DNA of 64,000 nt, taken from assembly GCA_005223125.1 (NCBI GenBank), contig NJBH01000007.1:64001-128000 (forward strand), read 5' to 3'. Shown here one piece after another: positions 49,279-54,149 of this stretch. The notes under the pieces are model-generated. The model had not been told where the DNA came from, did not search any database, and worked only from the letters and a program-made list of their open reading frames with translations. Within the stretch, counting starts at the first letter, position 1. The number at the start of each line of letters is the position of its first letter. A program made the translations under genes and the position numbers. The stretch is from Promethearchaeota archaeon Loki_b32. GTDB taxonomy: Archaea > Asgardarchaeota > Lokiarchaeia > Sigyniarchaeales > SOKP01.

Positions 49279-50088
49279 ATGGAAGGAATAAGAACTATAA
49301 AACATGAAAATATGGATGGAAAAGACTTTATAAGGCCCATTTGTATTTTAGGAATGCCGGGGATTGCCGATGTTGGAAAATTTGCTTTAGATTCTCTTAT
49401 AGGTCAACTTAACGCTTTAAATTTAATTGATATTATTTTTGATGATTATCCCGCTGGAGCAATTGTGGATGACAGTTTATTATCTGCTCCTAAAGCTGAA
49501 ATTTTATATTGGAAAGATCCAAATGAATTAAGAGATATAGTGTTAATAACTGCTGATGCACAAAGTCTTACTCCAAAAGGAATATATAAAATATCTAATT
49601 TTCTTACAGAAATTATAAATCAATATGGGATAAAATTAATAATTGCTTTAGGTGCGTATCCTGTAAACAGCAGAAAAATTACCTCAAAACTCCCTAAAAT
49701 CTATCTTAGTTCAACTAATCGAGATTTATTAAAGCATTATCTAGTTGAAAATAATTGCCAGAAGATTCAGAAGGGAGTAATAATTGGCGCAAATGGTTTG
49801 ATTCCAACATTAGCTAAAGCAAGATTTGACATTGATGGATTGGTTTTTCTTGCCGAGACAGATAATCTTGCCATGATTAATGAAGATATTACTGATCTTA
49901 AGGCTTCAATCACTCTTTTAGAAATGCTTATAAAATCCTTTACGTTACCAATTAAAAAGAAATATTCTTTGGAAAATATTGAAGAAATTACAAAAAACCT
50001 TCAAGTTAAGAGAGATCAATTAGAAAAAGATCTCGATTCACTCCAACTTGTTGATACAGATGATAAACGAAAATCATTATATATCTAA
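49279..50088 (+). CDS. PAC2-family proteasome assembly chaperone
   Basis: GMPGIADVG, ITADAQ, ALGAY, IIGANG; C-terminal HbYX (LYI). Confidence 0.85.
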   Translation: MEGIRTIKHENMDGKDFIRPICILGMPGIADVGKFALDSLIGQLNALNLIDIIFDDYPAGAIVDDSLLSAPKAEILYWKDPNELRDIVLITADAQSLTPKGIYKISNFLTEIINQYGIKLIIALGAYPVNSRKITSKLPKIYLSSTNRDLLKHYLVENNCQKIQKGVIIGANGLIPTLAKARFDIDGLVFLAETDNLAMINEDITDLKASITLLEMLIKSFTLPIKKKYSLENIEEITKNLQVKRDQLEKDLDSLQLVDTDDKRKSLYI

Positions 50089-50405: not shown

Positions 50406-51344
50406 TTATATTCTAATTTCGAATTTTAAATGATCAATTATTTCTTTGTATCGATTCCTGATAGTTGCTTCAGTAACTCCCGCAGCCATTGATATTTCTT
50501 TTTGTGTACGCCGTTCTCCTTCTTGTATAGCAGCAACATATAATGCTGCACCTGCTAATCCTGTTGGTGCTTTCCCTGCAGTGATACGATATTTTTTTGC
50601 AAGTTTTAAAATTGAAGCCGCCCTATTTTGAGTTTTTCCAGAGAGTTTTAATTCGGCGCAAAACCGTGGTATGAAATTTATTGGAGAGGAAACTTGAATA
50701 TTTAATTTAAGCTCTCTTAGAATTAACCTGTAGCAGCGAGCGACTTTCTTCTTATCTACTGAAGCAAATTCTATGAAATCATCTAAAGTCTTAGGAATAC
50801 TATTCAATCTACAAGATAAATAAATTGATGCAATCAGCATTGCTTCAATAGATCTACCTCTAATTAAATTCTTATTAGCCATTTTTCTATAAATGTGTGC
50901 AGCTGATTCTTTCAAATCTTTTGATAGGTTTAGTTGAGAAGAAAATCTATCCAATTCATTCATTGCATAGGCTAAATTTCTATCAATCGACTTATTTGTA
51001 CGCGTCCTTACATGCCATTTTCTTAACCGATAAACTTCCGCCTTCATTTTAGGGCTTATTGTCTTTCCAAACGCGTCTTTATTCTTCCAACCGATCATAG
51101 TACTTAAACCCTTATCATGAAGAGTTAGGGTTGTAGGGGCTCCTACTCGCACTTTTTTCTTTGCCTCTTCTGATGTAAATGCTCGCCATTCGGGCCCAGA
51201 ATCTATAAGTCTTTGACTTAAAACTAATCCACATATGCTACAAATTATCTCACCACGAGATTCATCTGAGATTAAATTTTTGTTACCACATTCTGGACAT
51301 AAATTGAAATTTTTTTGAGAGAATGAAAGATCCAATAATGCCAA
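50406..51344 (-). CDS. tfb: Transcription initiation factor IIB
   Basis: CPECG Zn ribbon, GPEWRAF, HDKGLST, RGRSIE, GVTEATIRNRYKE. Confidence 0.97.
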   Translation of the reverse strand: MALLDLSFSQKNFNLCPECGNKNLISDESRGEIICSICGLVLSQRLIDSGPEWRAFTSEEAKKKVRVGAPTTLTLHDKGLSTMIGWKNKDAFGKTISPKMKAEVYRLRKWHVRTRTNKSIDRNLAYAMNELDRFSSQLNLSKDLKESAAHIYRKMANKNLIRGRSIEAMLIASIYLSCRLNSIPKTLDDFIEFASVDKKKVARCYRLILRELKLNIQVSSPINFIPRFCAELKLSGKTQNRAASILKLAKKYRITAGKAPTGLAGAALYVAAIQEGERRTQKEISMAAGVTEATIRNRYKEIIDHLKFEIRI

Positions 51345-51503: not shown

Positions 51504-51977
51504 ATGCGACATTATTACAAGACCCATGGAAAACATTGCTATCTCCGATCTTTTCAATCAAAATGTCCAAAATGTAATGCTAGTGTATTATTTTGGGAAT
51601 GTACCCACGGAAGTAAAGTTTTTTTTGAGTATCCCCCTTACGGAAAACTGGTAAGGCATTTTTGTCGGTATCATAAAGGGGCATTTAATGTAAAGAAAAA
51701 ATTTCAAATTATTGTTAAGAAACCAAAAGGACTTTTAGATTATCAATCTCCAAGTTGTCCGGTGTGTGGGAAATTATTTAAAAATATTAGTAGTTTAGAA
51801 GATCATCTGGAGATTTTAAAAAAAAATGATATTTATCATAAGCTTTTTTTTGATAATAAAATTTCATTTGAAGATAAGTTTGTAGAAAATATACACAAAA
51901 ATTCAGATCAGACCAAATTGCGTGAACAACCAGAATTTGGGAAAATTAACATAAAAAAAGAGAAAAAAATTGATTAA
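51504..51977 (+). CDS. Hypothetical zinc-finger protein
   Basis: CPKC..C.HGSKVFF..H.C; CPVCGKLF..L..H C2H2-like. Confidence 0.65.
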   Translation: MRHYYKTHGKHCYLRSFQSKCPKCNASVLFWECTHGSKVFFEYPPYGKLVRHFCRYHKGAFNVKKKFQIIVKKPKGLLDYQSPSCPVCGKLFKNISSLEDHLEILKKNDIYHKLFFDNKISFEDKFVENIHKNSDQTKLREQPEFGKINIKKEKKID

Positions 51978-52088: not shown

Positions 52089-52724
52089 ATGCCATTAGAC
52101 ACACAAACCGTTGTTAATAATTTAATGCAAAACGATCCCCACATTATCGCCGCAGCTGTGCTTAAAGGCAAAGAAATCATTTATACAACAGATAATTGGG
52201 ATATTAGTGCAGATGTTGACAGAGTAGTATCAAGTTGGACTGGACAAAATGCCCAGTTTATCATGGTTTCTGGTGTAAAATATTCTGTACTGCAAATTGG
52301 AGCTGAACGATTAGTGGCTATGTCTTATAAAGGTGAGGGATCTATAGTAGCAGCGAAAGACGATGAGCATAAATTAATTACTTATTTGGATCCCGATGGA
52401 TATGGCATTGGCGCTGCAATGGAGGTTCAAAGAGCTTTAGGGGATTTGAGTACCAAAACATCTTATTTAGATTCAAATATTCAATTAGGTCAAGCGGGAG
52501 CTCAAGTGGGGGGTGCGGTATCTGCAGGAGTTGCACCTTCAGCTGGTGCAGGTCCAAGTGTAGATCCTCAACTTAAAGGTGAGATTCAATCTTTTCTGGA
52601 TTGGATTAAAGATACTGAGGGTTTATCAGGTTATATTAATTACTATCTTCAGCAAAATAATGCTCAAATAATATCTGAGTTGTCAAAAATTTATAATGAA
52701 CTGAGACAAATTTTTGGTGTCTAA
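52089..52724 (+). CDS. Asgard profilin-like protein with C-terminal extension
   Basis: IIYTTDNWDIS, SGVKYSVLQ..ERLVA..KGEGSIV, LITY match Loki profilin motifs (TENWNIS, GIKY, ERK, GKGH, LITY). Confidence 0.8.
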   Translation: MPLDTQTVVNNLMQNDPHIIAAAVLKGKEIIYTTDNWDISADVDRVVSSWTGQNAQFIMVSGVKYSVLQIGAERLVAMSYKGEGSIVAAKDDEHKLITYLDPDGYGIGAAMEVQRALGDLSTKTSYLDSNIQLGQAGAQVGGAVSAGVAPSAGAGPSVDPQLKGEIQSFLDWIKDTEGLSGYINYYLQQNNAQIISELSKIYNELRQIFGV

Positions 52725-52878: not shown

Positions 52879-53421
52879 ATGATCTTAAGAATTAGATATT
52901 TCAATAATTCAACAATTGTGAGATATTTGGCTAAAAAAGATAAAAATCAAGAAAACAAAACTTCAATTATCAAAAAAATTAAAAGCAAGATTGGTGGGGG
53001 AGAGATAGAAACAAAGGAAACTGAAACAACTAGTTTGAAATTTGAAAAAGAAATAAAAAAAGAATATTTATCAAGTGAAGATCTAGAATTAGATATTCCA
53101 GTTGTTCCTGAAGTGCCTAAACAAACAGAAAAATTTACTTTAGATACCTCAGATTTATCTTCTGATGTTTTAGAAAGAATGAAAAAATTCGAATCTTCCA
53201 AGGTTAAAGTAGTAATAGTAAATTGCCAGCGATGTAAAGCAGTTATCCCTGTTCCAGTTCCAAAAAAAGCTGTACTGGACTCAGAATTACCTGTAGTTCC
53301 TATTAGTTATGTTCATAAAAATCTGCAGAAAAAAGATCAACACTGTTTAACTATCCATCTTGATCATGATTTTGATATTCGAAGACAGAGAATATCTGAT
53401 GTAGTTCTATCTCCTGATTAA
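52879..53421 (+). CDS. Hypothetical protein with CxxC..H..H C-terminal domain (true start may be TTG ~52927)
   Basis: CQRC..ISYVH..HCLTIHLD..IRR. Confidence 0.6.
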   Translation: MILRIRYFNNSTIVRYLAKKDKNQENKTSIIKKIKSKIGGGEIETKETETTSLKFEKEIKKEYLSSEDLELDIPVVPEVPKQTEKFTLDTSDLSSDVLERMKKFESSKVKVVIVNCQRCKAVIPVPVPKKAVLDSELPVVPISYVHKNLQKKDQHCLTIHLDHDFDIRRQRISDVVLSPD

Positions 53422-53435
53422 AACTAAATAAAATA

Positions 53436-53660
53436 TTAAAAGATAAAATTAATCAGGAAAGCAATAAAAAAAGGTATAACACATAGACAACACAAAAATC
53501 CATACCAACTTTTCTTCCAATTAATATATGTATTAGGGTTCAATATTACTTGACAATTTGGACAAAGTTTCTCTTTATGATCATCAACGTGAAATCCACA
53601 ATTATAGCAAATAAGTATTTCATCATTGACGTTATTATTTTTAACCTCGATTTTTGACAC
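53436..53660 (-). CDS. Zn-ribbon protein with C-terminal TM helix
   Basis: CYNCG..CPNC; hydrophobic C-terminus. Confidence 0.65.
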   Translation of the reverse strand: MSKIEVKNNNVNDEILICYNCGFHVDDHKEKLCPNCQVILNPNTYINWKKSWYGFLCCLCVIPFFIAFLINFIF

Positions 53661-53792: not shown

Positions 53793-54149
53793 ATGAAGAT
53801 CTTAGCTGAAGACAAGATAAAAATTGAGGATGTTACAGTTTATTTGAATCTGTTTAGGTTACATAAGAGTTTTCTTTTGTTAATTTCTGATCACCCCGAT
53901 ATGGGGATAGGTAACGTAACATTAGGGAGTCCACCAATTATTGAAGGTATTAAATCGCCAACAGCATCTTATAACCTATTTGGCATGAGAACAAAATTAT
54001 TAAGTACAATTATTGCAGAAAGAGCTTCAAATAACCTAAAAGCACCAGTATTACTCCTCTTATTTTTAAAATGTAAAAAGAATGATGAAGAGATAATAAA
54101 ACCTATAGTTAATTTTCTGAATAAAGTCCTTAAAGATATATCAGAATAA
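53793..54149 (+). CDS. PAC4-like proteasome assembly chaperone family protein
   Basis: FLLLISD..GIGNVTLGSP..LFG..LS.IIAER..PVLLLL pattern. Confidence 0.55.
   Translation: MKILAEDKIKIEDVTVYLNLFRLHKSFLLLISDHPDMGIGNVTLGSPPIIEGIKSPTASYNLFGMRTKLLSTIIAERASNNLKAPVLLLLFLKCKKNDEEIIKPIVNFLNKVLKDISE

Follow-up and report, generated by a model that had tools for sequence, protein, structure and literature searches.

What would an archaeal profilin do with a second folded domain at its C-terminal end? This question is raised by an open reading frame in a 64,000-nucleotide stretch of DNA (hereafter the window) from Promethearchaeota archaeon Loki_b32 (contig NJBH01000007.1, positions 64,001 to 128,000), the product of which is predicted to combine a genuine profilin with a disordered linker and a small three-helix module. 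Lokiarchaeia include cultured Asgard archaea with actin-filled protrusions and crawling. In eukaryotes, profilin is recruited by the polyproline tracts of formin FH1 and Ena/VASP, and we know of no Asgard formin or Ena/VASP homologue, nucleator or elongator. Structures of Odin profilin and of Loki profilin-1/-2 were reportedly described by Akil and Robinson in 2018. The Asgard profilins characterized to date (Loki-1, Loki-2, Odin, Heimdall and Thor) are single-domain proteins or carry short disordered N-terminal extensions only (PMC9433394, PMC8410842). Those of Loki-1, Loki-2 and Odin do not bind polyproline (PMC8410842, PMC9433394), and nucleation machineries, in the authors' words, 'have yet to be discovered in Asgard archaea' (PMC9433394, PMC8410842).

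The reading frame coincides exactly with positions 52089-52724 (+) of the window in the list of open reading frames and runs from ATG to TAA, encoding 211 residues plus the stop codon (computed mass 22.68 kDa, pI 4.5). The 111-bp intergenic stretch 5′ of it, read directly, is AT-rich and TATA-like. Database searches returned 661 proteins matching the product at E ≤ 1e-3; nearly all of the best 120 of these 661 are 198-229 residues in length and align with full-length coverage at 69-99% identity, and every one of the 120 is annotated as 'hypothetical protein'. A scan of GTDB species genomes yielded 208 further relatives. Since the best of the 661 homologues are nearly all full-length and are joined by these 208 relatives, the frame is a real gene, far beyond chance, and is referred to below as long profilin A. 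With its 211 residues and its extra linker and folded domain, the long profilin is separate from ordinary single-domain profilins; the novelty lies in the joining of profilin, a known family, to a new, order-restricted domain family.

To model the whole protein, AlphaFold2 (AF2) was run on a 47-sequence alignment. Residues 1-120 (52089-52448, +) were modeled confidently (pLDDT about 90) as a central antiparallel sheet flanked by N- and C-terminal helices. When these residues were searched against the PDB with Foldseek, the best match was the Odin profilin/actin structure 5ZZA (TM(target) 0.85, rmsd 1.4 Å), followed by Loki profilin-2 and -1, the Thor and Heimdall profilins and eukaryotic profilins, and almost all of the matches listed (top 50) were profilins. 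phmmer searches of PDB sequences likewise found Odin, Thor and Loki profilins at E 8e-10 to 6e-3, the strongest values being 8.3e-10 (5ZZA), 2.3e-9 (7PBH) and 8.2e-5. Relative to Odin profilin 5ZZA and Loki profilin-1/-2 (5YED/5YEE, 5ZZB), long profilin A thus has the same predicted fold (TM 0.78-0.85 (target), rmsd 1.4-3.0 Å) and a sequence kinship that extends to shared NW and VKYS-type strand motifs; the Odin and Loki profilins, however, are single-domain proteins of 119-136 residues, whereas long profilin A has about 90 additional residues consisting of the linker and the three-helix module. The Pfam Profilin family (PF00235) scores 20.1 bits (E 7e-4), below its gathering cut-off of 25 bits, which is probably why public records leave the protein unnamed. 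Taken together, model and sequence comparisons indicate that residues 1-120 adopt a profilin fold akin to that of the actin-binding Asgard profilins, and we infer that this domain would bind Lokiactin monomers as the Odin and Loki profilins do.

Residues 121-157 (52449-52559, +) form a flexible low-complexity linker, of which residues 124-157 were modeled with low confidence (pLDDT below 50). Its length ranges from 25 to 55 residues across the 47-sequence alignment and exceeds 100 by a wide margin in P0157 and P0171, and its composition is dominated by Ser (18%), Gly (14%), Ala (12%), Thr (9%) and Gln (7%). Identity within the linker averages 32% among 33 type-A orthologues and falls to 12% between the window protein and paralogous or distant forms. 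The linker thus appears, from these comparisons, to behave as a spacer that is free to vary.

The remainder of the protein, residues 158-211 (52560-52721, +), constitutes the C-terminal three-helix module, hereafter the tail. Helices span residues 160-174, 179-188 and 192-209 of the whole-protein model, in which the tail has a pLDDT of about 80. When a 57-residue construct covering the tail was folded alone using an alignment of 35 diverse tails, three helices (6-20, 25-34 and 38-54 of the construct) were again obtained, with a pLDDT of 95.5 and a pTM of 0.70. The preliminary description of this locus had read residues ~1-120 as profilin-like and the C-terminus as a Gly/Ala stretch followed by a helical tail, and had remarked that characterized Asgard profilins are mostly single-domain. 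The literature bears out the latter remark. The profilin assignment is corroborated by phmmer, Foldseek and AF2 alike, and AF2 predicts the helical tail to be an independent folded domain on a flexible linker. The Gly/Ala stretch is present at about residues 134-154, although the linker proper is, by AF2, longer than the quoted run and is rich in Ser, Thr and Gln as well as in Gly and Ala across the family.

To determine how widespread the tail is, 301 genomes drawn from across the phylum were screened with a three-sequence tail profile, which recovers the window protein at 2e-31. The profile matched in all 68 other genomes of the window's family and in 7 of 7 genomes of a second family of the same order, and in 0 of 226 other Asgard genomes, including two from other orders of the class. 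Tail matches number two to four in 73 of the 76 positives; the other three genomes, at 76-88% completeness, have one match each. The usual set comprises two long-profilin paralogues and a tail-only protein of 53-57 residues. Confined in this sampling to one Lokiarchaeial order, the tail is a lineage innovation rather than an ancestral trait of eukaryotes. The submitter labels of 12 metagenome-assembled genome records with a long-profilin gene (L074, L079, L091, L103, L105, L106, L115, L120, L121, L129, L131 and L137) read Hermod-, Hod-, Thor- or Odin-archaeota or 'Nanopelagicaceae bacterium'; these labels conflict with the GTDB-based grouping, which places all positives in two families of one order, and likely reflect mislabeled or mixed bins.

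A filter-free HMM search of all open reading frames in the window's own genome revealed exactly three tail-bearing genes: long profilin A; long profilin B, a 221-residue protein of the same layout and 33% identity to A (L002:1486-2151); and a tail-only gene encoding a mini-protein of 53 residues (L004:1495-1656, minus strand; contig G000:C2). A fourth tail-like match, a 58-residue stop-to-stop frame on the minus strand of G000:C36 (offset 1002 from the contig end; E 0.014), covers only the second half of the tail profile and is a chance match or a decayed remnant. The same genome also harbors two plain profilins (open frames of 129 and 139 residues), and plain profilins are present in every genome with tails. 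In the second family, represented among others by a closed genome of 4.4 Mb, a long profilin, one or more plain profilins and a tail-only gene of 53-57 residues are again found. A maximum-likelihood tree of the profilin domains grouped 7 of 9 plain profilins in one clade (support 100/100), the other two forming long, divergent branches, and placed long A (support 100/96) and long B (89/99) in clades apart from the plain profilins of the same genomes. The tree, the backbone of which lacks resolution, is compatible with a single origin of the long profilins.

Sequence comparisons mark the tail as the best-conserved part of the long profilin. Tail identity reaches 84% among the 33 type-A orthologues, against 72% for the profilin domain, and 51% against 28% when the window protein is compared with paralogous or distant forms, which argues that the tail is the more tightly constrained of the two. 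Across the 35 diverse tails W172 is invariant, while G178, L179 and Y202 are nearly so, and the module as a whole may be described as about 50-55 residues forming three helices with conserved F-L-x-W-[IV], G-L, Y and C-terminal F-G/Y-x positions. Seven of its 54 residues are aromatic. The A, B and mini lineages of the tail each retain their own characteristic surface residues across the two families, as would be expected for specific partner recognition.

The tail is also found on other proteins. An 18-sequence tail profile searched against 1.84 billion representative proteins returned no more than 62 clusters, of which 53 reached E ≤ 1e-10, comprising long profilins, stand-alone proteins of 49-66 residues and rarer fusions. 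Among the latter are Ras-family GTPases with a C-terminal tail behind a proline-rich, zinc-knuckle middle region (P0125, P0129 and P0140), a Ras-tail-gelsolin protein of 429 residues from a single 2.1-kb contig (P0145), an LRR-tail protein (P0169) and a permuted tail-polyproline-profilin protein of 315 residues from two contigs (P0134). The eight members of P0125 are nearly identical and come from at least 15 contigs of independent origin, and P0129 and P0134 have two members each. Direct reading of GTDB genomes also revealed two Ras-tail genes (L054:1484-2503, minus strand, and L055:1614-3035, plus strand); together with P0125, P0129 and P0140, their products display proline-rich tracts, repeated zinc knuckles and YPYPI-type motifs. 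All the unusual fusions carry A-type tails that are 75-85% identical to the tail of the window protein, and L054 retains a 42-residue profilin-domain relic between GTPase and tail; the fusions are thus rare, recent offshoots of long profilin A. They show that the tail is transferable and has been kept on signaling and actin-regulating domains, and say nothing on its activity.

Searches for known relatives of the tail were negative. Pfam and NCBIfam returned only noise for the isolated tail, the tail-only protein and long profilin B. A PDB profile search with 35 tails gave no match (best E 0.26), the SARAH-domain (RASSF5) and exendin entries in its output (E 0.3-1.9) being taken as chance; Foldseek found no PDB match to the isolated tail at E ≤ 10; and the ESM Atlas yielded no usable match. 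In a wide VIA-align search, the best Z was 5.4, to unrelated helical segments and well below the level meaningful for helical bundles. The literature searched contains no account of the tail or of any C-terminal profilin domain, though the long form may have been mentioned earlier.

How, then, might the tail work? We lean, tentatively and at a likelihood just short of even, toward a mobile docking or oligomerization module that gathers profilin-actin and signaling proteins at a shared site. The profilin domain, judging from its fold and sequence, would hold a Lokiactin monomer, the linker of about 35 disordered residues would act as a leash, and the 54-residue three-helix tail would be a self-contained protein-protein docking module for a site common to all tail-bearing proteins. 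The most economical such site would be another tail, so that long profilins A and B and the 53-residue tail-only protein would assemble into homo- or hetero-oligomers, the tail-tail contact itself being a conjecture; alternatively, the shared site may lie on a common hub protein. Docking would cluster several profilin-actin units, to which some lineages may add Ras-like GTPases, gelsolin or an LRR protein, and clustering would raise the local supply of polymerizable actin as a polyproline-independent counterpart of FH1/Ena-VASP recruitment. The tail-only protein may serve as a cap, competitor or adaptor.

Docking is favored because the tail is an autonomous folded domain behind a disordered linker, because it is more constrained than the profilin domain while the linker is free to vary, and because it is modular, with partner domains that are actin regulators or signaling switches. 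The co-occurrence of several tail genes per genome, the conserved surface positions proper to each of the A, B and mini lineages, the failure of Loki and Odin profilins to bind polyproline and the lack of any known Asgard nucleation or elongation machinery point in the same direction. The observations of the preliminary description are confirmed overall; the distribution of the tail, which it had put forward as a check, proves to be that of an order-wide, multi-copy family rather than of one oddity. Its interpretation is partly supported, in that the idea that the tail could tether or oligomerize the protein fits with the apparent nature of the tail as a mobile module on several proteins.

The likeness of such a protein to the formin and Ena/VASP systems would lie in proposed function only, namely the concentration of profilin-actin at an assembly site via a flexible tether. 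Eukaryotic profilin binds non-covalently to a tether that belongs to its partner, whereas the long profilin has tether and putative docking domain within itself. A parallel in design is provided by the Asgard gelsolins, some of which have C-terminal additions, a helical domain X in Thor 1DGelX and a 69-79-residue linker with a Zn domain in Loki/MK-D1 2DGel (PMC7444086, PMC9433394). In these gelsolins, as in the long profilin, a core that regulates actin is joined by a long linker to a small accessory domain restricted to one clade. The accessory domain itself differs between them, and the tail profile, searched in the window's genome with all filters off, matched no gelsolin frame.

It is conceivable, if doubtful, that the tail is the first recognized piece of a Lokiarchaeales-specific actin assembly system, a docking domain wiring profilin-actin, gelsolin and Ras-like GTPases into one complex. 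If so, polymerizing filaments would be fed through a polyproline-independent, possibly GTPase-controlled delivery of actin monomers, formin- or Ena/VASP-like in effect and independently built, and tail pull-downs would give direct access to the Asgard nucleation and elongation machinery. A profilin paralogue conserved throughout the order and probably expressed (as B35_Pro1, see below), a tail found on Ras-like GTPases and gelsolin and a conserved mini-protein together offer a handle for finding the missing partners, and a soluble domain of 54 residues is suited to pull-downs, structures and competition experiments. The architecture of actin regulators has, moreover, kept diversifying within Asgard lineages, which bears on what the archaeal forebear of eukaryotes may be inferred to have possessed.

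A bundle of three helices this small might just as well bind actin, some other protein or no partner at all, and the evidence assembled for docking calls for caution on several counts: the fusion partners profilin and gelsolin bind actin themselves, so an actin-binding tail also fits; the Ras-tail-gelsolin arrangement comes from one short contig; and the unusual fusions are rare and recent. The main alternative, rather unlikely in our view although not to be set aside lightly, is that the tail is a second, direct actin-binding site, headpiece-like or thymosin/WH2-like. The profilin domain would then hold one monomer while the tail held a second one or a filament, thereby anchoring profilin to filaments or helping to nucleate them; the tail-only protein would be a small actin-binding factor, and the Ras, LRR and gelsolin fusions would be actin-targeted. 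Consistent with such an activity, the tail is fused to two different actin-binding folds, profilin and gelsolin, and its strong conservation fits a highly conserved ligand such as Lokiactin. The layout, too, recalls that of villin and supervillin, in which a small, all-helical domain of about 55-65 residues is attached C-terminally to an actin-binding core through a flexible linker (PMC12674126), and one tail-bearing protein, P0145, also has a gelsolin repeat; the core, however, is a profilin in the long profilin and gelsolin in villin.

Neither the villin headpiece VHP (PF02209) nor WH2/thymosin-beta (PF02205, PF01290) was found by hmmscan of the isolated tail and the tail-only protein, even at E ≤ 10, and the only LK-type motif in the tail, LKGE, starts helix 1 instead of coming after a helix. 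Headpieces were also missing from the Foldseek results and from the top 50 of the VIA-align search, the best hits of which were generic helices, although fold searches discriminate short helical domains poorly, and the helices of the tail are longer (15/10/17 residues) than those of the headpiece. Binding of the headpiece to F-actin depends on basic residues; the tail, in contrast, is acidic (pI 4.4, 7 acidic versus 4 basic residues), and the placing of its basic residues varies from one lineage (A, B or mini) to another.

Further argument against a direct actin site comes from a preprint on L. ossiferum (10.1101/2025.11.30.690169), which allows two profilins to be compared. B35_Pro1 (UYP46361.1, 22.82 kDa) is abundant, with a proteome mean log2 of 19.5, and was detected but not enriched in a Lokiactin co-immunoprecipitation (log2 0.31, P 0.17), whereas the plain profilin B35_Pro2 (14.47 kDa, proteome mean log2 17.4) was enriched (log2 1.07, P 0.0018; 10.1101/2025.11.30.690169). 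Judging by mass alone (22.82 versus 22.68 kDa), B35_Pro1 is probably a long profilin A, made as a protein in culture; the tail of B35_Pro1 is not discussed in the preprint. That this likely orthologue was not enriched with Lokiactin while the plain profilin was weakly favors a tail partner other than F-actin.

Quite improbable, in our view, is that the tail regulates profilin domains by binding to them, whether in cis or in trans. It would fold back on, or bridge to, a profilin surface such as the face formed by the N- and C-terminal helices, which binds polyproline in eukaryotes, and would thereby gate actin or lipid binding, the mini-protein regulating plain profilins. In keeping with this, the tail departs from the C-terminal helix of the profilin fold, and every tail-bearing genome has plain profilins on which a tail could act. 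The Heimdall and Thor profilins (6YRR, 7PBH) likewise have an appended segment, thought to modulate partner binding, and their N-terminal extensions tune ligand binding (PMC8410842). That extension, however, is N-terminal, disordered and about 20 residues long, whereas the addition to the long profilin is C-terminal, consists of a linker and an autonomous domain that is also encoded by a gene of its own and carried by other proteins. AF2, for its part, predicts no confident inter-domain packing: the pTM is 0.55 for the whole protein against 0.70 for the tail alone, and the pLDDT of the tail drops from 95 to about 80 in the full-length model, so there is no sign of stable packing of the tail onto the profilin domain. 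Tails on Ras and LRR proteins devoid of a profilin domain would, in addition, require a model in trans.

Finally, the gene neighborhood was inspected. Directly upstream of the long profilin, at every locus examined in both families, lies a gene for a 157-residue zinc-ribbon and C2H2-type protein, ZnF157 (51504-51977, + in the window), which gives weak C2H2 Pfam matches. Like the tail, it is confined to this order (25/25 and 2/2 genomes), other genomes giving only marginal zinc-finger motif matches. Flanking the cluster are a PAC2-family (proteasome assembly chaperone 2-like) gene (49279-50088, +) and a TFB/TFIIB gene (50406-51344, -), the adjacency of which to the ZnF157-profilin pair is conserved across the order. 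The family-wide gene order reads TFB (divergent), ZnF157, long profilin A, orf180, orf74 and orf118, and the second family keeps the core of TFB, ZnF157 and long profilin. That the tail binds a partner outside the actin system, ZnF157 or another order-specific factor, with the profilin fold in a non-actin role as in its roadblock and longin relatives, is very improbable: the constant adjacency and matching restriction of ZnF157, the sub-threshold Pfam score and the kinship of the profilin, roadblock and longin folds (PMC10933270) would agree with it, but in sequence and structure alike the best matches are Asgard profilins bound to actin instead of roadblock or longin proteins, adjacency within one order may be inherited synteny given that the TFB gene next door is conserved too, and the gelsolin fusion points to actin.

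The neighboring genes are candidate partners, and ZnF157 could be a partner or a regulator; inherited synteny explains the pattern equally well. A gelsolin gene adjoining long profilin A, comparable to the Pro2/2DGel2 pair of L. ossiferum, was ruled out, all six gelsolin-repeat matches (five open reading frames) lying on other contigs. The three downstream genes, orf180 (52879-53421, +; 180 residues), orf74 (53436-53660, -; 74 residues) and orf118 (53793-54149, +; 118 residues), yielded no Pfam or meaningful PDB match, the sole PDB match of orf118 being to a short repeat-like stretch in a designed protein. At the other tail loci, the tail-only gene is divergently paired, in at least 12 genomes of both families, with a gene for a 318-residue protein with a DnaJ-type CxxCxGxG zinc domain (L004:1808-2764, +); this protein is widespread in the phylum, which rules it out as tail-specific and argues that it predates the tail. 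Long profilin B, in turn, is preceded by a 461-residue open reading frame (L002:114-1499, +; contig G000:C50) that gave no Pfam, PDB or ESM Atlas match and shares its last 14 nt, stop codon included, with the start of long profilin B. This overlap is conserved across the family, and the 461-residue protein is probably co-translated with long profilin B as a candidate partner.
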